Part shown: positions 5,088 through 58,810 of the stretch, piece by piece | How positions within the stretch are numbered: the first letter of the stretch is position 1 | How the letters are laid out: every line of letters begins with the position of its first letter | NCBI GenBank assembly: GCA_048538275.1 | Contig: JBLYPW010000004.1 | Span: 7,567 to 71,566 of the forward strand | Length of the DNA stretch: 64,000 bases | Direction of reading: 5' to 3' | Source of the DNA: Candidatus Komeilibacteria bacterium | GTDB lineage: Bacteria > Patescibacteriota > Patescibacteriia > UBA1558 | Translations under genes and position numbers: made by a program | Notes under the pieces: model-generated | What the model was told of the DNA's origin: nothing | Database searches by the model: none | What the model saw: only the letters and a program-made list of their open reading frames with translations

Positions 5088-6057
5088 TATGATTTTTTTC
5101 TTTTATGGCGACGACACTTATCGCTCTTATGCCAAAATAAAACAAATCCGTGATAAATTTCGTCAAGAAGTTGATCCTAGTGGTTTTAATATTTTATTAT
5201 TGGACGGGGCAGAAATAAAACTGGAGGATTTTAATGCCGCTGTTAGTCAAGCCGGTTTTTTGGCTAATAAACGTTTAATTATTATAAAAAATATTTTTAA
5301 TAATAAGTCTCTAAACAATTGGCGAGATGAAATTATTGCTTACCTAAATAGGCAAACTGACAGCCCGGAAGAAAATTATCTGCTCTGGTGGCAGGCCGGT
5401 ATACCAGACAAACGCAATGCTTTATTCAAAAAACTATCAAGCTATAAATTTTCACAACAATTTGATCCATTGACTGATAATAAATTACTACAATGGATAA
5501 TGCATACATGCCAAGAACAAAACGTACAAATTACTAAGCCCGCTGCGCATGAATTGGTCGCTATCGTCGGCAATAATCTCTGGCAACTTAGTCAAGAAAT
5601 TGCCAAACTTGCCAATTATAAACCCAATCAATTAATAACTCCGGCCGACATTGAATTGTTAGCACACGGTCAGACAAATGAAAACATTTTTATTCTCAGC
5701 GACGCCGTCGCCCAACAAAACAGGGCAAAGGCTTTAAAACTATTAAACAATCAAATAAATGCCGGTCTGAATGAACAATATTTACTAACCATGATCATTC
5801 GTCAATTCCGTATTCTCATCCAATTAAAATCACTGCTCAATAGCGGCATAGCGCCCAATAAACTGGCCAGTGCCGCCGCTCTTCATCCTTTTGTTGTCAA
5901 AAAAGCGCAAGCACAAATACAAAAATACAATTTGCAACAATTGACTGATATTTATCATCGTTTACTAAAAACCGACTTAGAACTGAAATCAACTAATATA
6001 AATTCCAAGATCCTCTTAAATAAGTTAATCATAAAAACCAGTCCGCCCAGCGAGTAA
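5088..6057 (+). CDS. holA: DNA polymerase III delta subunit
   Basis: HolA-like N-terminus MIFFFYGDDTYRSYAKIKQIRDKF. The ORF is open from 5008 but the internal ATG at 5088 fits the family start better. Confidence 0.75.
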
Positions 6058-6451: not shown

Positions 6452-7126
6452 CTATTTTGACGGCCATAAAAATTGTGTCCAGTTCTCCTGATTTAGCTGG
6501 TCAAGTTGGGTGGCTTTTTCTACAGAAAAATCACCAATACTAAGACGGCGCAATTCATAAACCACCGCCCCCGTACCCAACTCCTGACCAATATCATGTA
6601 CCAAAGAACGAACATAGGTGCCAGAACTACAGCTTATCAATAACTCAAGCCAAGGATAAGAAAAATCCTCAATCTCTAATTTACTAATAATAATCTCCGC
6701 CGGCTGACGTTTTATCTCCTTGCCTTGCCGAGCTAATTCGTACAGTTTCTTACCCTTTACTTTTTTAGCAGAAAACATCGGTGGCACTTGCTGCTGAGAA
6801 CCTGTAAATTTTTCTAAAGCTTTATCAATCTGCTCGCGACTTATTTTCTGTTCTGAAAAAAACTTAACCCGACCATCGGCATCATAACTATCCGATACCT
6901 CGCCCAACTTAGTGCGCGTCGTATAAACTTTTGACAATTTAACATAGTGGCTAATGCGCTTAGTAGCCTCTCTGCCAATGGCCACTATCAATAATCCGGT
7001 AGCTAATGGATCTAAGGCACCCGCATGGCCAATTTTTTTTATTCCCGTAATGGTACGCAGGCGCGCCACCACGTCAAATGATGTCCAACCCTTAGGTTTA
7101 TCTATTAATAAAAATCCATTACCCAT
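6452..7126 (-). CDS. truB: tRNA pseudouridine(55) synthase
   Basis: GFLLIDKPKGWTSFDVV and GHAGALDPLATGLL motifs. Confidence 0.9.
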   Translation of the reverse strand: MGNGFLLIDKPKGWTSFDVVARLRTITGIKKIGHAGALDPLATGLLIVAIGREATKRISHYVKLSKVYTTRTKLGEVSDSYDADGRVKFFSEQKISREQIDKALEKFTGSQQQVPPMFSAKKVKGKKLYELARQGKEIKRQPAEIIISKLEIEDFSYPWLELLISCSSGTYVRSLVHDIGQELGTGAVVYELRRLSIGDFSVEKATQLDQLNQENWTQFLWPSK

Positions 7127-35325: not shown

Positions 35326-35419
35326 TTTACTAGTTATCAACATATAACAACCTTATTATTAATCATTTTTGGCTGGCCCTTATGACGCTAGCCTAAAACT
35401 GAAAGGGGGTGAAACTGGT

Positions 35420-35800
35420 ATGAGAAAAATTTTCTCCAAGACCAATATCATCGCTTTTGTCATGTTGGCCTTGATGATGATGCCAATAGTGACAATGGCT
35501 GCAGGCAATGTTGACATTGGCATTAATGATGCCGCCAATATCGGCCTGGGCAATACAGACGCTAAAGACGTCGTGACTAACATAATCCAAGTTATTCTCG
35601 GATTCTTGGGCTTAGTTGCAGTTATTATCATCTTAGCTGGTGGTTTCATGTGGATGACAGCCGGTGGTAATGAAGATAAAGTAAAAAAGGGTCGCCAATT
35701 GATTATCAATGGTATTATTGGCCTGATTATCATTTTAGCTGCCTTCTCTATCGCGACTTTTGTGCTCAATTCCTTAAAATCAGCAACCGGATTAAACTAA
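35420..35800 (+). CDS. TrbC/VirB2-like pilin paralog 3
   Basis: GGFMWMTAGGNEDKVKKGRQLI. Confidence 0.75.
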   Translation: MRKIFSKTNIIAFVMLALMMMPIVTMAAGNVDIGINDAANIGLGNTDAKDVVTNIIQVILGFLGLVAVIIILAGGFMWMTAGGNEDKVKKGRQLIINGIIGLIIILAAFSIATFVLNSLKSATGLN

Positions 35801-35892
35801 CTATTTTATAGTCTAGACTATAGTGGATCAAATCCTTGGTCCACTTAGGCCTAAACTTTAATTAGGGTTATAAATAAGTATTAAATAATACT

Positions 35893-36279
35893 ATGATGAA
35901 AAATATCTTTAGTCGTACCAATATTGTCGCCTTTCTATTGTTGGCTATAATGTTTGTGCCAGCTATTACCATGGCTAGCGGATTAGATACTAACTTGGGT
36001 CTAAATTATGCTGGCAATATTGGCCTGGGCGAAACAGACGCCATAGACGTTGTTACAAATATCATACAAGTAATCTTGGGCTTCTTGGGATTGGTGGCGG
36101 TAGTAATTATCTTAATTGGTGGATTCACTTGGATGACAGCCGGTGGTAATGAGGATAAGGTCAAAAAAGGCCGCACCTGGATTATCAACGGCGTTATTGG
36201 CTTAGTGATAGTGCTAGCTGCTTTTTCCATCGCTTCCTTTGTTATCAATGCCAGCAAGAACGCTACTGGCCTTAATTAA
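35893..36279 (+). CDS. TrbC/VirB2-like pilin paralog 4
   Basis: GGFTWMTAGGNEDKVKKGRTWI. Confidence 0.75.
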   Translation: MMKNIFSRTNIVAFLLLAIMFVPAITMASGLDTNLGLNYAGNIGLGETDAIDVVTNIIQVILGFLGLVAVVIILIGGFTWMTAGGNEDKVKKGRTWIINGVIGLVIVLAAFSIASFVINASKNATGLN

Positions 36280-36363
36280 TATAGTCTAAATTTTGGCGGG
36301 CCAGACTTGGCCCGCCCTGATGTGGCCTATATTATGATTTGGTTAAATAAAAAAAATCAATCT

Positions 36364-36750
36364 ATGTTATTTGTCAGCCTAATTTTATTTATGGCTGCTT
36401 TTGTTTTGTTTACCACGATTAGCCCTGCTCTAGCCTCTTCCGGCCTAGATGATGCTAAAGAGGGCCTAGGACAGGCCGCTCGTTATGGCGGCTTTACGAG
36501 CGACGCAGAAGGACCAACTAGTCCAGTAGATTTAGCTTCAAAAATAATTAAGACAATTCTTGGTTTTGTTGGCACTATATTTTTAATCCTTATTATAGTC
36601 TCCGGCTTCCAGTGGATGACAGCCGGTGGTAATGAAGAAACTATAAAAAAAGCCCGCGGTAGAATGACTAGCGCCGTTATTGGTTTGGCAATCATTCTCG
36701 GGGCTTGGGTAATCACCGACTTTGTAATTAATTCTATAGTATCTTTATAA
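36364..36750 (+). CDS. TrbC/VirB2-like pilin paralog 5
   Basis: SGFQWMTAGGNEETIKKARGRM. The start could instead be 36307 or 36334. Confidence 0.7.
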   Translation: MLFVSLILFMAAFVLFTTISPALASSGLDDAKEGLGQAARYGGFTSDAEGPTSPVDLASKIIKTILGFVGTIFLILIIVSGFQWMTAGGNEETIKKARGRMTSAVIGLAIILGAWVITDFVINSIVSL

Positions 36751-36751
36751 A

Positions 36752-37150
36752 ATGAATTTTCATAACAAAAAAAAGCTGCTACTCTGCTTCATTTTAATGG
36801 GCTTGATTGTGTTACCCGCCTTAGGCCACGCCGCGCTTCTAAAAGAAGGCACCGACATAGGCGGCGGTGCCAAAAATTTTGCTGAACACTTGGGTTATCA
36901 AACAAACAATACTAATACACCAACCGATGTCGCAGCATATATCATAACCTTGCTATTAAGCTTTGTGGGCACCGTCTTTGTAATATTAATTATCGTCTCC
37001 GGCTTCCAGTGGATGACGGCCGGTGGTAATGAAGAGACTATCAAAACATCACGCAAGCGAATAATTAATGCGACTATTGGCTTAGTAATAGTTTTAGCCG
37101 CTTTTGTTATCACCAGGTTTGTCTTATTTAATATACAATATGCCGTTTAA
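36752..37150 (+). CDS. TrbC/VirB2-like pilin paralog 6
   Basis: SGFQWMTAGGNEETIKTSRKRI. Confidence 0.75.
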   Translation: MNFHNKKKLLLCFILMGLIVLPALGHAALLKEGTDIGGGAKNFAEHLGYQTNNTNTPTDVAAYIITLLLSFVGTVFVILIIVSGFQWMTAGGNEETIKTSRKRIINATIGLVIVLAAFVITRFVLFNIQYAV

Positions 37151-37556
37151 AATAGTAAAAAAAACACTAAGCATAGTTAGCCTCTTTATTCTGCTGCTAC
37201 CCGCTGTGGTAGGGGCGGCTGGAAATCAGCCAGCCAGCGACCTTGATCAATTGCAAATGGGACAATTTGATGCGTTAGAAAATGCCGTCACCGGGCAAGG
37301 CGACCAAGAACCAGCCTCAGTAGATAGTATAGTGGCCTACATTATCAGGATGGCGCTTAGCTTTCTCGGCTTTATATTTATAATATTAATTATCGTCTCC
37401 GGCTTCCAGTGGATGACGGCCGGGGGCAATGAAGAGACTATCAAAACATCACGTAAACGCATGACCAATGCTGTCATTGGACTAGCCATAGTAATAGCCG
37501 CCTTTGCTATCAGTGAATTTGTATTAGGAACAATTATCAATGCCACATTACGCTAA
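37140..37556 (+). CDS. TrbC/VirB2-like pilin paralog 7
   Basis: SGFQWMTAGGNEETIKTSRKRM. Overlaps paralog 6 by 11 nt. Confidence 0.75.
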   Translation: MPFKIVKKTLSIVSLFILLLPAVVGAAGNQPASDLDQLQMGQFDALENAVTGQGDQEPASVDSIVAYIIRMALSFLGFIFIILIIVSGFQWMTAGGNEETIKTSRKRMTNAVIGLAIVIAAFAISEFVLGTIINATLR

Positions 37557-38040
37557 AATTACCGTTCTAGTTGTTTTTTCCCTCACCATCCTAATGAGTG
37601 CGGGTATTTTTTTTAGTCAACCCGCTCTTGCCAGTTCTGACCTGGGCAATACCATCTTAAACGAACACCAACAATTTCAAAACGAAGTAGGGGTGCTAAC
37701 CCCAGAAAGAGACTTGCCTGATATTATTGTTATGCTGATTAAATCAATCCTCGGGCTATTGGGCCTAGTTTTTGTCGTATTAATACTACAGGGAGGCTTT
37801 CAGTGGATGACTGCCGGGGGTAATGAAGCCTCAATAAAAAGCGCTAAGAATAGATTAAAAAACGCTATTATCGGATTGCTCATAATTATAGCGGCTTATT
37901 CTATTACTTTGTTTGTAATAAATGCTCTCAAAAAAAGCACCGGCGCTCAATATCAAAGCAGCTCCTGCCAAAGTAACGATGATTGTCCTAGTGGTTTTCG
38001 TTGTAGCGAGGCTTTACACACCTGCGTAATAAAGTTATAA
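37540..38040 (+). CDS. TrbC/VirB2-like pilin paralog 8 with short Cys-rich C-terminal tail
   Basis: GGFQWMTAGGNEASIKSAKNRL followed by SSCQSNDDCPSGFRCSEALHTCV. Confidence 0.7.
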   Translation: MPHYAKITVLVVFSLTILMSAGIFFSQPALASSDLGNTILNEHQQFQNEVGVLTPERDLPDIIVMLIKSILGLLGLVFVVLILQGGFQWMTAGGNEASIKSAKNRLKNAIIGLLIIIAAYSITLFVINALKKSTGAQYQSSSCQSNDDCPSGFRCSEALHTCVIKL

Positions 38041-49734: not shown

Positions 49735-50835
49735 TTATTGACGTATTGGCATTACAATATATAAATATCCTTCTCTGTCGGTTGGTACAAATACGCCTGG
49801 CGCGCCTTGATTACTGAGCTTTATGGTGACGCTTTCCGATTGTAGACCATTTAGGCCGTCTAGTAAATAACGATAGTTAAACACCATATCTATTTCATCA
49901 CCCTTAATATCGGCATTAATTTTTGTTATATTTTCCCCTAAACCACCATTTGCAGACACTATTATTATCTCTCCTTTACTTGGTAAAAACGTCATTTTTA
50001 CGTCATTTATGCCTGGTTTACAAAACAAAGCTGCTCCTTTTATTGCCTTCACTAGTTCGGTTATTTTAGTAGTAACAATCGTCTTTTCTTCTTTGGGGAT
50101 AATTTGTTCATAATCTGGGTAATTACCATCTATTAAACGAGAAACTAATTTCACATTATCATAGCTAAACAATATTTGATCATCGTTCATACTAATGCTG
50201 ACCTCTCCTTGACCGCTCACCCCTAAGCCACGAAATAACTCTTGTAATGTTTTTAACGGCACAATTATTTTTTTATGTAGCTCGCTTTTAGTCTCTATTT
50301 TCTTTTCCGCTAAACGATAGCTGTCGGTAGCGGCCACCACCAAGTTGTTTTCACTAAAATTAAAAAATACTCCACTTATTTCTGGCCTACTTTCATCAAC
50401 ACTAACGGCAAATAATGTTTGACTCAACAATTCTTGCAAATTTTCTTTTTTTATTATTACTTGCTCTTCCGAAGAAACTTCTGGAATCAAGGGATAGTCC
50501 TCTGCGCTCATTCCCTTAATCTCTGTTTGTGATTTTTTACTGTCTATTTTTAATCCTTCATCGCTTACCGTCAAAGTAATATTTTCTTTTGGTAAAAGAT
50601 TTATATAGTCGGTTAATAGTCTAGCAGGAACAGTATAACTTCCGTCCTTTTCTACCTTCCCCCGTATTTGTACATTTATGCCTATTTCCAAATTGGTAGT
50701 AGCTAAAGTAATAATGCCATCGACCGCCTTTAATAAAACATTATTTAAAATGGGAAGATTAGCATTACGAGAAGCAATATGATTTACTATTGATAACCCT
50801 GTATTCAAATTTTCTTGCGTGCAAATGATTTTCAT
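49735..50835 (-). CDS. dnaN: DNA polymerase III beta sliding clamp
   Basis: MKIICTQENLNTGLSIVNHIAS. 366 aa. Confidence 0.9.
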   Translation of the reverse strand: MKIICTQENLNTGLSIVNHIASRNANLPILNNVLLKAVDGIITLATTNLEIGINVQIRGKVEKDGSYTVPARLLTDYINLLPKENITLTVSDEGLKIDSKKSQTEIKGMSAEDYPLIPEVSSEEQVIIKKENLQELLSQTLFAVSVDESRPEISGVFFNFSENNLVVAATDSYRLAEKKIETKSELHKKIIVPLKTLQELFRGLGVSGQGEVSISMNDDQILFSYDNVKLVSRLIDGNYPDYEQIIPKEEKTIVTTKITELVKAIKGAALFCKPGINDVKMTFLPSKGEIIIVSANGGLGENITKINADIKGDEIDMVFNYRYLLDGLNGLQSESVTIKLSNQGAPGVFVPTDREGYLYIVMPIRQ

Positions 50836-55024: not shown

Positions 55025-55420
55025 TTATTTTTTATTTTCTTCGCTTTCTTTGGTAGTTTTGGCAGCCGTCTCTTCCACAACATTACATTGGCCATTTAAA
55101 GTTGCGCCTAATTCAACCATTAAAAGTTTTGCAGAAACATTGCCTTTCACGCTAGCCTGGCTGGTTATATGAAGTTTTTCTTCAACAGTAATGTTGCCCA
55201 CAATAGAGCCTGCAATAAAGGCGTTTTTTGCATGGACTTCGGCTTTGACCTTAGATCCCTCACCGATTTTTAAATTGTTTTTAGTTTTAATGTTACCAAT
55301 AACCTCTCCTTCAATAATAATATCATGATTACTTATAAAATCTCCTTCAACTTTTACGGAGGAACCAATGATGGTTTCAGCGGTTTTAATGTCTTTAGCC
55401 GGGTTTTCTTCTTTGAACAT
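55025..55420 (-). CDS. Bactofilin family cytoskeletal protein
   Basis: Repetitive beta-helix motifs (IEGEVIGNIKTKNNLKIGEGSKVKAEVHAKNAFIAGSIVGNITV). Confidence 0.8.
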   Translation of the reverse strand: MFKEENPAKDIKTAETIIGSSVKVEGDFISNHDIIIEGEVIGNIKTKNNLKIGEGSKVKAEVHAKNAFIAGSIVGNITVEEKLHITSQASVKGNVSAKLLMVELGATLNGQCNVVEETAAKTTKESEENKK

Positions 55421-55513
55421 AGCCTTTTTGTTAAAAATAAAAATTTAGACAAATGGTCGCGGATATATTATATTATATAAGCTCTTGTTTACCAACCAAT
55501 AATTATCAACCTT

Positions 55514-55651
55514 ATGTCAACAGGCATTGAAAAAAAAGATCTTTATATTATATTAGGCACGATGGTAGCCTATATAGCGCTATTTATTGCGTTGAAATTG
55601 TGGGACATGCAAACCGGTGTTTTAGAAAGTTTAGCTGCCGGCATAATTTAG
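55514..55651 (+). CDS. Possible small membrane peptide (45 aa)
   Basis: Hand-translated MSTGIEKKDLYIILGTMVAYIALFIALKLWDMQTGVLESLAAGII. No strong RBS. Confidence 0.2.
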   Translation: MSTGIEKKDLYIILGTMVAYIALFIALKLWDMQTGVLESLAAGII

Positions 55652-55710
55652 TGTTTTACGACGCATAATTTGGTCTAATATTATATAAAATTATATTTTA
55701 TAGTAAAATT

Positions 55711-55724
55711 GTTCCAGCTGGAAC
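55711..55724. repeat. Perfect 14-bp palindrome GTTCCAGCTGGAAC overlapping the putative tRNA-Arg promoter (copy 1 of 2)
   Basis: Exact dyad. A near-identical palindrome occurs at 57225..57238. Confidence 0.8.
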
Positions 55725-55740
55725 GATTTTATTTACACAA

Positions 55741-55815
55741 GCTCTCGTAGTTCAACGGATAGAACAAGGCACTCCTAACGCCTAGATGTAGGTTCGATTC
55801 CTGCCGAGAGCACCA
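55741..55815 (+). tRNA. tRNA-Arg (anticodon CCT), encoded CCA
   Basis: Hand fold: acceptor GCTCTCG/CGAGAGC, D GTTC/GAAC, anticodon loop CTCCTAA with an A31:C39 mismatch, T-arm GTAGG TTCGATT CCTGC. Confidence 0.8.
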
Positions 55816-55945
55816 CTTAGGAAAGCTCAACACCGCGTGTTTGATTTTTTTTGTATTTAATTTCGGATTAAAAACGGAATACGCGATTTTGTTTGAGCAA
55901 TGAAAAACCCCTTAGAAGCTATCAAAAAGCGGCGCTTGCTACCTC

Positions 55946-55974
55946 TTGACTTTTATGGCATAATATGCTAAGAT
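55946..55974 (+). promoter_or_regulatory. Consensus-like promoter TTGACT, 17 nt spacer, TAAGAT driving the GC-rich downstream segment
   Basis: Hexamers and spacing. RBS GAGGT 6 nt before the ATG at 56045. Confidence 0.5.
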
Positions 55975-56044
55975 CTGAAACAGAGTGGTTGGGCTATAGT
56001 AGTTTGACCAAAATCGCACATTCCCAATAGAAACGAGGTAACAA

Positions 56045-56520
56045 ATGCAGATCGTATTAACGTTTCTTTATCTGCTGGTGGGATTTCTACTGGCGATTCC
56101 GTACTGCCTGCTAGCGGGATGGAGCACGGAGAGTTACCCGATGGTTGCTTTCGTGATGCCTGATTCCTGTTCATCTGGCTCATGTTGGCGTTTTTCACAG
56201 GCGTGGTGGACGAGGGTCATCCGATCAGCTTTAACTGGCGCGCTGCCTTCGGCAAGGGTGACCGCCGAAGACTGACGGGATCTCCTGTCATGCTCTGGGC
56301 GTGGACTATCTACGGTTTTCTACCGGTGACTATCCACTGGAGCGCAGTGTTTTTAGGTAAAGTTGGCTATGAGACGGCCAGCTCGTTTCTGGATGCACAT
56401 CGTTACGGGAGCCCGTTCTTAGTCCTTATAGCGACCTTTATCCTACTAATTCTCAGCCGGCTAGCTATTAATGCGTCTGGTGCGGCAAAGAATATATGGA
56501 CGCGGCTCGTCAATCAGTAG
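56045..56520 (+). pseudogene. GC-rich (above 50%) frameshifted small membrane-protein gene, likely horizontally acquired
   Basis: Frame 2 ORF 56045..56275 (MQIVLTFLYLLVGFLLAIPYCLLAGW...) and frame 1 ORF 56164..56520 (FLFIWLMLAFFTGVV...ILLILSRLAI) overlap and together encode about 4 TM helices. G+C-rich codon usage unlike host genes. Confidence 0.4.
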
Positions 56521-56541
56521 CGAATGGTGTTCTATTCAATT

Positions 56542-56583
56542 GGGGCTCTCCACGGATAATCGTGAGTTGAGCCCCTTTTCTTT
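56542..56583 (+). terminator. Rho-independent terminator GGGGCTC/GAGCCCC plus TTTTCTTT
   Basis: 7-bp GC stem and T-run 22 nt after the 56520 stop. Confidence 0.6.
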
Positions 56584-57189
56584 AATTTCCTCTTTATTTT
56601 TATGTCATAATTGTGTTCGCAGCGCGCCTTCGGAATTATTGGTTGTAAAAGGACTGGAAATTGTTATCGGTGTGACAAAGTTATATTTTGCAAGGCGTTT
56701 TCCAGTTGCAGTAGGCATCAGAACCAGTTCGCGCTATTTTAAAAACAGAGCGCTAAGGCGCCCACGGGAAGCATTGGGAGGCGCTCACATTGACAAAAAG
56801 TATAATATTTGTTATTATTGCTTGATTGATTATAGAAATATAACAGCAAAAGCTTGCTTATAGGAGGCACATATTGGAAGCATTAGTGTTTCATTTGAAC
56901 GAAAGACTTGGTGTTTTTTTAGAAACAAAGCCTTTTTTTGTTTGTAACCCGGGTGCTTGTCTATTTAAATCCGGTCGCAATTTTGCCACAAGCAATTAGT
57001 TCAGTTTTGGAGAGTCGGTAGAAGGAGCCTCGCCGGGCATGTGATATATGTTTTATGCCATACAAACAGCTTTTGTTTTTATTGGGATAAAGGAGAAAAA
57101 TTCGGCTGTTTTTGGTTCAATGCTAGTCAGTTTTATTTTATCCATAATAATTATAGTTGCGGTCACAGTTAGAAACCATGATGACCGCA

Positions 57190-57224
57190 CCCCCCCCCAT
57201 TTTAAAGAATAAGTGGGGTTTTTT
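57190..57224 (+). terminator. C-run (C9-10) followed by CCCCA/TGGGG hairpin and a T6 tract
   Basis: Preceded by a GCGGTCA/TGACCGC hairpin at 57159..57188. Confidence 0.35.
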
Positions 57225-57238
57225 GTTCCACGTGGAAC
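57225..57238. repeat. Perfect 14-bp palindrome GTTCCACGTGGAAC (copy 2 of 2)
   Basis: Same TTGTTCCA..TGGAACRA context as copy 1. Confidence 0.8.
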
Positions 57239-57467
57239 AAAAGAAGAGTGCTATTTGGCGGCATTACCACCTAATCTCTTGTTTTAAGCAGTTTATCATA
57301 AAGGACAGATTTAGAGGTTTTTATCGTTTTCTTGGCTTAGAGCGAGCAAATGTTGTAAATAATAAACAGCTTTTCAATTTCAATACCTTGACAACTATGT
57401 ATAATTGTGCTAAATTAAATAATCAATGAAATTTGACAATTTTAATTAAACAACAAAAGGAGAAAAA

Positions 57468-57932
57468 ATGGATGCTTTACGGCCATCAGTGCTTATTTGG
57501 TGGACCAAACTGGGGAAATATCAAGTAGTGGTAACAATTGTTACCTTGGCGGTTTATTTTAGCACTGCATATTTTACCGGGGACAAGGTACTAGCCGCCT
57601 TTGCCGCTCCCACCGCCGCCTTAATCGTCGCTTTGGGTGCTTTGGTCGTCGCCATGATCACCTTTGCCCCACCCCTGGCCGCTTCTGCTGCTGCCTTGGT
57701 TGTCACCCTTGCCGCTCCCACCGCCCTCTTGGCCACCTCGGCCGCTCCCGCAGCTACCTTGGTTATCGCCTTGGTCACCCCCATAGCCTTGGTCACCTTG
57801 GTTGCCGCCATAGTCGTGTCTGCCGACGCCAAAGAGCAGCGGGGCACCATAAGCCATAAGACAATTATTTTTACTTATGGGATGCAGTTCGTTTTCATAT
57901 TCACTCCAATATGGATATCAATGATTGGTTGA
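57468..57932 (+). CDS. Hypothetical membrane protein with GC-rich Ala/Pro/Thr/Val low-complexity core
   Basis: Excellent RBS AAAGGAGAAAAA ATG. The ORF extends about 40 aa before and about 30 aa after the repeat core. A terminator follows. The antisense strand carries Gly-rich ORFs (57621..57857). Confidence 0.4.
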   Translation: MDALRPSVLIWWTKLGKYQVVVTIVTLAVYFSTAYFTGDKVLAAFAAPTAALIVALGALVVAMITFAPPLAASAAALVVTLAAPTALLATSAAPAATLVIALVTPIALVTLVAAIVVSADAKEQRGTISHKTIIFTYGMQFVFIFTPIWISMIG

Positions 57933-57949
57933 GGAGTGATAAAATTGAC

Positions 57950-57982
57950 TTGGAGCATGTCATTAAACTGCTCCTTTTTTAT
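57950..57982 (+). terminator. Rho-independent terminator GGAGCA/TGCTCC plus a T7 run
   Basis: Directly after the 57932 stop. Confidence 0.65.
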
Positions 57983-58122
57983 TTTGTTTAACAATAATTA
58001 TTATGCTTTTAGATTTTACTATTGATAGTTTTTCCGATTTACTTTAGAATATTAACGCTTGTGGTATTAGCTTAGTTTCAGCCAGAGGCTGACCAAACCT
58101 TGGTTGGGGCTAGACATTTCGC

Positions 58123-58199
58123 GGGGTATTAGCTCAGTTGGCTAGAGCGCTTCCTTCGCATGGAAGAGGTCGCCGGTTCAAATCCGGCATACTCCACCA
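58123..58199 (+). tRNA. tRNA-Ala (anticodon CGC), G3:U70, encoded CCA
   Basis: Hand fold: acceptor GGGGTAT/ATACTCC, anticodon loop TTCGCAT, T-arm GCCGG TTCAAAT CCGGC. Confidence 0.85.
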
Positions 58200-58227
58200 C
58201 CCAAAACCAACATTTGTTTAAGAATTT

Positions 58228-58653
58228 ATGCAAATTGATAAAAAGAAAACATACTTGGCGTATATAGTTAACGCCGTAGGTTCTAAACTATGGCGGGATT
58301 TATATTTTGAAGACGGTAAGAACATAACAAGCTCCGGCGAATATAGCTGCGCTGTTTTTGTTTCCACGGTCTTATATATTTTGGGTTGGTTGGATGGTTT
58401 GCATGCGACTGTAATTTCAACAGAAGCAGCTCTGCAAAATTCGGGTTGGCAAGTTGTTGAAAAACCAAAAGCAGGAGACGTGATTGTTTGGCCGGAAAAC
58501 GACCAGGGTAACAAACACATTGGTTTTGTAATTTGCGACAGTGAAGCGGTAAGTAATAGTAGTCGGTTAAAAAGAATAGTTAAACATCATATAACTTACA
58601 AAGGGAAAAGAAATTGGCAAGCATTGTATCGTTTTCCAGGGATGAATGATTGA
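58228..58653 (+). CDS. NlpC/P60-like papain-fold cysteine peptidase domain protein, no signal peptide
   Basis: SSGEYSCAVFV (the Cys motif, cf. DCSGFV) and GDVIVWPEN...HIGFVI (the His motif, cf. GDLVFF..HVGIYIG). Confidence 0.5.
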   Translation: MQIDKKKTYLAYIVNAVGSKLWRDLYFEDGKNITSSGEYSCAVFVSTVLYILGWLDGLHATVISTEAALQNSGWQVVEKPKAGDVIVWPENDQGNKHIGFVICDSEAVSNSSRLKRIVKHHITYKGKRNWQALYRFPGMND

Positions 58654-58688
58654 CAGAAGCGAAAAAAATCATATAATAGAATCTACGT

Positions 58689-58765
58689 GGGCCCGTAGCT
58701 CAGTTGGTTAGAGCGCTTGCATGGCATGCAAGAGGCCGCCGGTTCGAATCCAGTCGGGTCCACCA
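58689..58765 (+). tRNA. tRNA-Ala (anticodon GGC), G3:U70, encoded CCA, one C:A mismatch in the T-stem
   Basis: Hand fold: acceptor GGGCCCG/CGGGTCC, anticodon loop ATGGCAT, T-arm GCCGG TTCGAAT CCAGT. Confidence 0.8.
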
Positions 58766-58810
58766 CGTCTGTAGAGTTAATTCATAAATTAACTCTACAG
58801 ACGTGGTTTA
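58766..58810 (+). terminator. Perfect 17-bp hairpin CGTCTGTAGAGTTAATT/AATTAACTCTACAGACG immediately 3' of tRNA-Ala, weak U-tail
   Basis: Exact inverted repeat with a CATA loop, followed by TGGTTTAT. Confidence 0.5.

Follow-up and report, generated by a model that had tools for sequence, protein, structure and literature searches.

The described systems closest to the locus reported here are phage morons, genomic islands at tRNA genes, mobile insertion cassettes and miniature inverted-repeat transposable elements (MITEs) (PMC4337579), and integron gene cassettes. A moron consists of one gene with its own promoter and terminator, and it is present in one genome and absent from the same place in related genomes (PMC3594210). 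The locus lies in a 64,000-nucleotide (nt) stretch of a Candidatus Komeilibacteria genome (GCA_048538275.1, contig JBLYPW010000004.1, positions 7,567 to 71,566), which is called the window here and supplies the coordinates. The segment between the tRNA-Arg(CCT) and tRNA-Ala(CGC) genes of the window is probably a lineage-specific islet of three self-contained transcription units on the same strand, captured at an insertion hotspot flanked by tRNA genes. Unit 1 encodes a predicted membrane protein, and related units, called cassettes here, are found at other loci. We class this unit as a chromosomal, moron-like, tRNA-associated gene cassette.

Comparison with relatives indicates that the segment was inserted between two tRNA genes that are close together elsewhere. 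The proteins and tRNAs of the window were mapped onto 77 loci obtained from a metagenome scan with the DAGK-like protein. The order dnaA-rnpA-yidC-DAGK-bactofilin-tRNA-Arg(CCT)-tRNA-Ala(CGC)-(CHAP)-tRNA-Ala(GGC)-TrxB-Trx is largely kept in the related metagenome contigs. The distance from tRNA-Arg(CCT) to tRNA-Ala(CGC) is 2307 nt in the window and 24-276 nt in all nine of the listed relatives that have both genes. The gap in the closest relative (L017, with flanking proteins 65-69% identical at the amino acid (aa) level) is a 24-nt hairpin spacer, AACCGAGGCCGGGCCTCGTTTCAA, and it is 75-276 nt long in L018-L020, L022, L023, L069, L079, and L088. Neither open reading frame (ORF) of the segment has a tblastn match in any of the 77 syntenic loci, and blastn and tblastx searches of the segment against the fetched loci gave nothing except cassette-homologous matches and two short ones of 23-25 nt. 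Set against every sampled relative the islet is a gain, and gene order dates it to the time since the divergence of the closest of them. The proposal of a first-pass annotation of this DNA that the segment is a horizontally acquired insertion beside tRNA genes is supported by the length of the gap and by the absence of the ORFs from the 77 loci. In the wider clade, the DNA between the 3' side of tRNA-Arg(CCT) and the next conserved gene varies in length (0.55-3.4 kb) and content. The small ORFs found there differ from each other; several are hydrophobic, and some are richer in G+C (GC) than the locus around them. The 3' side of tRNA-Arg(CCT) therefore looks like an insertion hotspot.

The segment reads as three tandem self-contained units because each of its three promoter matches has a hairpin and a T-run downstream (Table 1). 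The pattern TTGAC-N15-17-TGnTAnnnT, an extended -10 promoter of sigma-70 type, has six matches in the 64 kb, compared with 0.53 expected for the whole window, and three of the six are in the segment, all on the plus strand. The signals of unit 1 were compared in 17 distinct loci (the window, L003, L004, L005, L008-L016, L094, L096, L098, and L099). The promoter consensus across these loci includes bases of the spacer (TTGACTTTTATTGTGTAATATGCTAA), and it is followed by a leader with a hairpin of approximately 10 bp, a ACATTCCCAAC motif, and AAGAAAGCGAGGTGACAAATG. For the leader, a covariance model (R1) gives 73.5 bits in the window, 57-92 bits for the ten sequences it was trained on, and 32-56 bits for newly fetched cassette leaders; apart from one gene in L008 it has no significant match elsewhere in the approximately 736 kb searched. 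Support for the predicted leader hairpin is moderate: 87% of the cells are paired, compensatory changes occur in four of the ten pairs, and the covariation score was matched or exceeded by 21 of 500 shuffles. The predicted terminator has two tiers, GGGGCTCCCCACGAGCAATCGTGAGTGGAGCCC and then a T-run, and its inner stem covaries in L005, L094, and L099. In most of the loci the ORF comes with a conserved promoter, leader hairpin, and terminator, making a module of about 0.7-1.1 kb. In an all-against-all comparison, the cassette gene is the only coding element common to 13 loci, and there are no conserved neighbour genes.

Most of the signals listed in the first-pass annotation were found again. 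Its promoter appears in the scan and is conserved in homologous loci, the ribosome-binding site is a GAGG upstream of the start of the membrane-protein frame, the terminator is conserved in sequence with compensatory changes across loci, and the GC-rich, low-complexity ORF is the gene of unit 3. All three units of the window fit the own-promoter and own-terminator architecture of a moron as far as their predicted signals show, and like morons they are absent from relatives and, in the two ORFs, deviate in GC content. Unlike morons they are chromosomal, flanked by genes for tRNAs, a CHAP-domain protein, bactofilin, and TrxB with no phage genes nearby, and searches of IMG/VR viral contigs, of the phage collection, and of PHROGs gave no match to the unit 1 family. 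A further difference is that the cassette has kept its promoter, leader, and terminator along with the ORF in distant hosts.

The cassette-type expression signals are also found upstream of another gene. At 6639-7232 of L008, directly after the cassette terminator, a cassette-type promoter and leader precede an unrelated Cys-rich protein of 174 aa with CxxC pairs and a weak DUF7573 match, showing that the expression module has been reused by another gene. The leader of this gene is one of the ten training sequences of the covariance model. In L011 the cassette is directly followed (6560-6930) by a second GC-rich unit, also small, that encodes an acidic protein of 75 aa between a promoter-like site and a terminator-like end; L014 has a homologue of this protein. 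This suggests that other CPR (Candidate Phyla Radiation, or Patescibacteria) genomes may have tandem arrays of small GC-rich units behind tRNA genes. An Rfam search of four cassette loci found only tRNAs and noise.

The unit 1 protein belongs by sequence similarity to an uncharacterised family of predicted CPR inner-membrane proteins of about 160 aa with four helices. It has 42 homologues at 40-64% identity and approximately 100% coverage, with E-values down to 2e-59, and a profile of the family matches 134 clusters of a representative library at E<=1e-3. The members are similar over their full length and share the motifs LLAIPYCLLAGW, APAFLFIW, NWRAAFGK, LPxxxHWS, and HRY. The invariant columns of the family are kept in the protein of the window after its frame is repaired; Trp26, Pro94, Arg120, and Tyr121 are invariant residues, and His98 is nearly so. 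An AlphaFold2 model of the protein has four long helices and a mean confidence (pLDDT) of 86. The ratio of nonsynonymous to synonymous substitution rates (dN/dS) within the family is 0.10-0.28, which indicates purifying selection. As far as sampled, the family appears to be confined to CPR bacteria, and its distant members have no Pfam domain.

The reading frame of unit 1 is interrupted in the assembly by the loss of a single nucleotide. The frame switch reported in the first-pass annotation is real and divides the gene into ORFs 56045-56275 and 56182-56520. Alignment to a second contig pins it to one C that is absent between 56162 and 56163 (CCTG^ATTCC; CCTGCATTCC in L001 and CCTGATTCC in the window), and the site is not in a homopolymer. 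L001 is a 2943-nt Logan contig from another sample (run SRR32315888) and was found by exact look-up of the 154-aa protein of unit 3. It is 99.3% identical to positions 55773-58716 of the window, with 18 mismatches and 3 gap columns, and its 158-aa gene is uninterrupted. Within this gene, the 1-nt indel and one synonymous TTA/CTA change are the only differences from the window. No other split gene was seen in the ORF listing of the window or in the two gaps checked, which argues against a generally indel-ridden assembly without settling the point. With an intact allele in L001 and a family shaped by purifying selection, the lesion must have arisen very recently in this strain, unless it is an isolated error of the consensus. 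UGA recoding was rejected as the cause of the frameshift, since the protein is not encoded in the frame that leads up to the TGA, and the relative carries one base more. A programmed frameshift was rejected as well because every homologue has one uninterrupted frame, save L015, in which Ns mask the sequence.

The compositional anomaly of the segment is real, but it is a property of the two genes and not of the whole 2 kb. For comparison, the remaining 47 ORFs in the window have a GC content of 0.402 +/- 0.026 and a GC content at third codon positions (GC3) of 0.372 +/- 0.042, with a maximum GC3 of 0.451. The unit 1 ORF, measured after restoring the missing base, has a GC content of 0.522 (z 4.6) and a GC3 of 0.610 (z 5.7), and the unit 3 ORF has values of 0.527 (z 4.8) and 0.568 (z 4.7). 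The non-coding parts of the segment have GC contents of 0.380 (55816-56044), 0.367 (56521-57467), and 0.337 (57933-58122), similar to the 0.359 of non-ORF DNA in the window. In a 200-nt profile there are two peaks, one of about 57% at 56100-56400 and one of up to 63.5% at 57500-57900, with 33-44% between them. The earlier description of 55985-57930 as a GC-rich stretch thus holds for the two ORFs and fails for the DNA around and between them, where the GC content is 34-38%, as in the non-coding DNA of the window.

The GC excess is found throughout the cassette family. In all 17 loci the GC3 of the cassette gene lies above the mean of the neighbouring ORFs, with an average excess of 0.23 (Wilcoxon 8e-6), and it is the highest among the neighbours in 16 of them. 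It correlates with the GC3 of the host (Spearman 0.55), and the rise in GC is limited to the gene. Horizontally acquired genes are mostly AT-richer than the core genome of their host, so an accessory gene that is consistently GC-richer is unusual and runs against the common trend. The excess could come from repeated import of the gene out of a GC-rich pool, from GC-biased gene conversion at a locus prone to recombination, or from selection acting on the mRNA.

The cassettes are clustered behind tRNA genes. In eight of the 17 loci a same-strand tRNA gene ends 103-304 nt upstream of the cassette, against a background of 4.6% for 657 ORFs in 42 fetched, tRNA-rich loci (binomial P = 3e-7). The upstream tRNAs are of seven species: Arg-CCT, Leu-CAA, Ser-GGA (twice), Phe-GAA, Tyr-GTA, Asn-GTT, and Ser-GCT. 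In L011, L004, and L005 the -35 box lies 4-25 nt after the tRNA with no terminator between them. No motif common to the loci follows the tRNA 3' ends. Five tRNA-adjacent loci have no integrase or transposase within approximately 6 kb downstream; their downstream neighbours are GroEL, RecG, S1, a sigma factor, and ABC transporters. Comparison of L005 with L010 shows that tRNA-Ser(GGA) and the cassette are inverted as a unit relative to a shared LemA/M48/GroEL block, and the opposite orientations indicate that the tRNA and the cassette stayed linked through the inversion.

The islet shares with tRNA-associated genomic islands its position next to a tRNA gene, its odd composition, its absence from relatives, and its accessory genes. 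Unlike these islands it is only 2.3 kb long, it lacks an integrase and a repeat of the tRNA 3' end, and its genes are GC-richer than the host. No tyrosine or serine recombinase ORF was found in 55816-58122, and a repeat search of 55400-58800 found no repeat of the tRNA-Arg 3' end that could represent attL and attR. This agrees with the first-pass annotation, in which no integrase or att repeat had been found. The presence of the cassette family at seven or more tRNA species makes a single site-specific integrase unlikely.

Repeats at the edges of some cassettes give hints of a repeat-dependent mechanism of mobility. The whole module lies between inverted arms at two loci: in L003 the arms are 100 nt long (99% complementary; 96-195 and 1053-1152) and 857 nt apart, and in L015 they measure 65 nt (98% complementary; 5726-5790 and 6643-6707) and are 852 nt apart. 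Between the two loci the arms are homologous though diverged. Since they differ between loci yet are complementary within a locus, they indicate concerted evolution or recent formation. The module of L096 lies between two direct copies of a 43-nt palindromic element (97-139 and 816-858). A 3' boundary motif, GAAATTGTyAnCGG, is common to the window, L003, L015, and L096, and the window keeps a diverged homologue of the right arm of L003 up to about 56755. Most loci have no edge repeats, and neither does the left side of the window cassette. Target-site duplications are not visible at the ends of L003 and L015, and the arms are not repeated elsewhere in the sampled DNA.

These repeats invite comparison with two kinds of mobile cassette. 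The cassettes of L003 and L015 are like mobile insertion cassettes and MITEs in having long inverted repeats, a single passenger gene, and no transposase. They are unlike them in that the repeats vary between loci, lack a target-site duplication, and are absent from most loci. The ends of insertion sequences are expected to be far shorter than arms of 65-100 nt at 98-99% complementarity. Integron cassettes are also single-gene modules, and the L096 module with its two imperfect-palindrome copies is similar to them in layout. Unlike integron cassettes, the CPR cassettes appear to carry their own promoter and terminator. Canonical RYYYAAC/GTTRRRY core sites were not seen in the L096 element by eye, with no dedicated attC model run, and the loci examined contained no IntI and no arrays of more than two or three units. 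The cassette is not considered an integron cassette because of its own promoter and because no core sites and no IntI were found.

The other two units of the segment are less easily assigned. Unit 2 has no long ORF. Two short ORFs in one frame, 56874-56999 (with a TTG start after AGGAGG) and 57048-57212, are parted by a TAG at 56997 and a TGA at 57039. The read-through translation has no Pfam match, and the DNA has no homologue in any fetched locus. Unit 2 may be a decayed gene, a small peptide gene, or a small RNA. A poly-C tract at 57189-57197 is C9 in the window and C7 in L001. It sits at the foot of the terminator-like hairpin of unit 2, inside the 54-aa ORF, where it would shift the frame, and the difference in length may reflect a hypermutable tract or a sequencing artefact.

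The product of unit 3 is predicted to be an orphan low-complexity hydrophobic membrane protein. It has 32 Ala, 19 Val, 17 Leu, 17 Thr, and 14 Ile residues and is also Pro-rich; it is hydrophobic along most of its length and has degenerate internal repeats with spacings that are multiples of three. Its only database matches are to itself, in the NCBI Komeilibacteria metagenome-assembled genome and in the Logan contig, and the protein is identical in L001. No homologues were found even when the query was limited to the non-repetitive ends, which avoids swamping by low-complexity sequence. A single-sequence AlphaFold2 model is all-helical with low confidence (pLDDT 59.8). ORFs on the minus strand in 57554-57857 were rejected as coding because they have no Shine-Dalgarno sequence and do not extend into the AT-rich flanks. 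The plus-strand frame is preferred since it alone has a promoter, a GGAG, and a terminator and extends into those flanks. Upstream of the unit 3 promoter, at 57331-57366, there are seven differences between the window and L001 in 36 nt, compared with less than 1% in the surrounding DNA, which suggests a small recombined or hypervariable patch.

The decay and the non-coding RNA proposed in the first-pass annotation are both weakened by these results. The annotation held that the segment is foreign DNA whose membrane-protein gene is undergoing decay. The frameshift is real in the sequence, and its position outside a homopolymer and the lack of any other split gene make a real mutation plausible; unit 2, with its two stops between short ORFs of the same frame, may also be a degraded gene. 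However, the unit 1 gene has a single lesion and is intact in the 99.3% identical contig, with one synonymous difference besides the indel, its family has evolved under purifying selection, and its promoter, Shine-Dalgarno sequence, and terminator are intact and conserved. A decaying pseudogene is therefore rather unlikely. The annotation's alternative was a structured non-coding RNA, which would be a large one at 56520-57467. This DNA has no long ORF, a promoter-like site at 56790, and a terminator-like end, and its folding z is about -2.2 over 56826-57240. The many hairpins reported downstream of the terminator amount to a mild folding excess, with z values of +0.28 at 56584-56880, which covers the first 300 nt, -2.17 at 56826-57240, and -2.43 on the whole minus strand. 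In an Rfam 15 search of the window only tRNAs passed the gathering threshold, which GOLLD, ROOL, HEARO, 6S, and RNase P did not reach. At E<=10 in 55800-58150 the matches were at chance level, the best of those below threshold being sau-66 with 28 bits against a gathering value of 80. The composition is that of ordinary AT-rich spacer, no homologue was found in the fetched loci, and the sequence is conserved only in the near-identical strain. A large structured RNA is thus highly improbable.

Two further explanations concern the cassette family as a whole. One is that the cassette is a non-autonomous mobile element with inverted or hairpin repeats at its ends, comparable to a mobile insertion cassette or a palindrome-associated element, which would depend on a recombinase encoded elsewhere and would be directed to the 3' side of tRNA genes. 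The arms of L003 and L015, the palindrome copies of L096, the shared boundary motif, the tRNA adjacency in 8 of 17 loci, and the joint inversion of tRNA-Ser and cassette in L005 and L010 all fit such an element. Against it, repeats are missing from most loci and from the left side of the window cassette, and the arms vary in sequence and length, are not repeated in the sampled DNA, and have no target-site duplication. No transposase or integrase partner was found, and no common motif follows the tRNA 3' ends. On balance this explanation is unlikely. A bolder version, in which the module is a previously unrecognised tiny non-autonomous gene cassette of CPR bacteria that homes to the tRNA 3' flank and owes its GC3 excess to a GC-rich reservoir or to recombination in the form of GC-biased gene conversion, is doubtful and is put forward only tentatively. 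The other explanation is that the cassette gene is an old, vertically inherited CPR gene with selected high GC and a functional link to tRNAs through co-transcription, lost from the relatives of the window. The GC3 excess in 17 of 17 loci and its correlation with host GC3 fit a bias intrinsic to the gene, the short distances from tRNA to -35 box in L011, L004, and L005 would allow co-transcription, and RecG lies near three of the cassettes. On the other hand, the gene is absent from 77 of 77 syntenic loci, and with the tRNA pair 24-276 nt apart a clean loss would be needed in every sampled relative. The cassettes are also found at seven tRNA species without conserved neighbours, and dS is only about 0.45-0.55 between copies labelled Sungbacteria and Harrisonbacteria and a metagenomic copy. 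Vertical inheritance with loss is improbable.

Capture of an islet of self-contained units at the tRNA-flanked hotspot is the favoured explanation. On this view recombination at the hotspot brought the units in, with no integrase of their own. It would have used homology provided by the conserved tRNA genes, or by flanking hairpins and inverted repeats, or else a recombinase acting on them in trans. The proteins of the units probably have dispensable envelope or accessory functions, the leader hairpin may act on mRNA stability or translation, and the 1-nt deletion would be a very recent inactivation or a consensus error and not a sign of long-term decay. The pattern at the family level is statistically solid; the mechanism is a proposal.

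Several observations weigh against this explanation. Neither mobility machinery nor an att repeat or target-site duplication turned up in the window, so the mechanism of insertion given above is conjectural, and the left inverted-repeat arm of L003 and L015 is not present in the window cassette. The unit 1 family is absent from the plasmid collection, as from IMG/VR viral contigs and the phage collection, so these collections point to no vector. RecG is found within 3-5 kb of the cassette in L003, L008, and L015, so the distribution of the family may be partly vertical with local rearrangement. A GC3 excess that is uniform in 17 of 17 hosts is unlike simple transfer and amelioration and may reflect a constraint intrinsic to the gene. 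The promoters and terminators are predictions made from consensus matches plus conservation. As for function, neither protein of the segment has a match in Pfam, NCBIfam, PADLOC, PHROGs, or PDB sequences, and the predicted fold of the unit 1 protein has none in the PDB Foldseek and BFVD libraries.

What had appeared to be a decaying foreign gene is better described as a dated gain of an islet with an essentially intact gene for an accessory membrane protein. In the window itself this is a modest islet of hypothetical genes, and the interest lies at the level of the family, which has its own expression signals in most loci, is the GC-richest gene nearly everywhere, and is clustered behind tRNA genes. 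The genomes of CPR bacteria are tiny, and few mobile elements have been recognised in them. If small cassettes do move there without encoding a recombinase, they would offer a concrete handle on the exchange of envelope functions among these bacteria. The conserved promoter and leader are also a candidate strong expression module for CPR bacteria, whose promoters are poorly known.

Table 1. Features of the segment and of its surroundings, in window coordinates
Feature	Position	Strand	Basis and remarks
dnaN	49735-50835	-	
dnaA	51114-52508	-	
tRNA-Arg(CCT), ancestral left anchor of the insertion	55741-55815	+	ARAGORN, Rfam; near-identical ortholog in L017; present in most syntenic relatives
Inserted lineage-specific segment, about 2.2 kb	55816-58021	+	Synteny; right edge approximate, set just before the promoter-like site of tRNA-Ala(CGC)
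Unit 1 predicted promoter, TTGACT-17-TAAGAT, extended -10 TG	55946-55974	+	Promoter scan; conserved with spacer in L015, L010, L011
Unit 1 5' leader: hairpin 55987-56009, ACATTCCCAA motif, GAGG Shine-Dalgarno 56035-56038	55975-56044	+	Covariance model
Unit 1 gene, 158-aa predicted four-helix membrane protein	56045-56520	+	Alignment; frame broken by 1-nt deletion in the assembly
Unit 1 predicted intrinsic terminator, GGGGCTCTCCACGGATAATCGTGAGTTGAGCCCC then TTTTCTTT	56542-56583	+	Position and most of the sequence kept across loci
3' flank of unit 1	56584-56755	+	Homologue of the corresponding DNA of the L003 and L015 cassettes (flank, right inverted-repeat arm)
Boundary motif GAAATTGTTATCGG	56657-56670	+	Same motif at cassette edge in L003, L015, L096
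Unit 2	56790-57224	+	Predicted promoter TTGACA-17-TATTAT 56790-56818; terminator-like hairpin and T-run 57195-57224
Palindrome GTTCCACGTGGAAC (GTTCCANNTGGAAC), operator-like, second copy	57225-57238		First copy 55711-55724, upstream of tRNA-Arg
Unit 3 predicted promoter, TTGACA-17-TAAATT, extended -10 TG	57388-57416	+	Promoter scan
Unit 3 gene, 154-aa hydrophobic protein	57468-57932	+	GGAG Shine-Dalgarno 57459-57462; orphan
Unit 3 predicted terminator: GGAGCA, 11 nt, TGCTCC, then TTTTTTATTTT	57952-57985	+	Read from sequence; omitted by a simple scan (loop >8 nt)
tRNA-Ala(CGC), ancestral right anchor	58123-58199	+	ARAGORN, Rfam; own promoter-like site 58022-58050

The segment lies close to the replication origin region. 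The window has an overall GC content of about 40%, and its cumulative GC skew has a minimum and turn at approximately 51-56 kb, with dnaN and dnaA nearby on the minus strand; the turn places the segment within a few kb of the origin region. The gene order after dnaA is rnpA, yidC, the DAGK-like gene, bactofilin, tRNA-Arg(CCT), the segment, tRNA-Ala(CGC), CHAP, tRNA-Ala(GGC), a CsoR-like gene, and trxB. The spacer was considered as oriC because of the nearby dnaA and dnaN genes, and this was rejected: the window has 23 DnaA boxes compared with 17 expected, and just one, with one mismatch, is inside the segment.

The palindrome GTTCCANNTGGAAC looks like an operator for some regulator. It has two matches in the 64 kb, compared with 0.04 expected, and it is found upstream of tRNA-Arg(CCT) in nine relatives (L018, L019, L020, L022, L023, L069, L073, L079, and L088). 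Some relatives have additional copies elsewhere in their loci, such as the one between trx and trxB in L022.

Short similarities to the tRNA-Ala genes are found within and beside the segment. A stretch of 15-16 nt in each of the GC-rich ORFs (56197-56211 and 57498-57513; core TGGTGGAC) is the complement of part of the tRNA-Ala(GGC) 3' end (58750-58772). A primer-binding site was rejected as an explanation, since the site is not conserved in the family alignment, and the complementarity is probably due to chance. At 58063-58077, 62 nt upstream of tRNA-Ala(CGC), there is a 15-nt copy of the tRNA-Ala 5' end (58125-58139; GGTATTAGCTTAGTT and GGTATTAGCTCAGTT). An overlapping stretch of 25 nt (58068-58092) is 92% identical to positions 489-513 of L017, upstream of tRNA-Ala(GGC). 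The copy of the tRNA-Ala 5' end may represent a leader element, or else a piece of tRNA that a rearrangement left behind.

Two other regions of the window contain genes of possible interest. The CHAP-domain gene (58228-58653), which is peptidoglycan hydrolase-like, lies between both tRNA-Ala genes; L017, the closest relative, has a counterpart in this position (46% identity), and the other relatives gave no match there. At 35369-38040 there are six successive small ORFs of 128-166 aa on the plus strand. At least two of them share closely similar hydrophobic N-termini (MRKIFSKTNIIAFVMLALMMMPI and MMKNIFSRTNIVAFLLLAIMFVP), and from their sequences these ORFs look like a paralogous array of secreted or pilin-like proteins.

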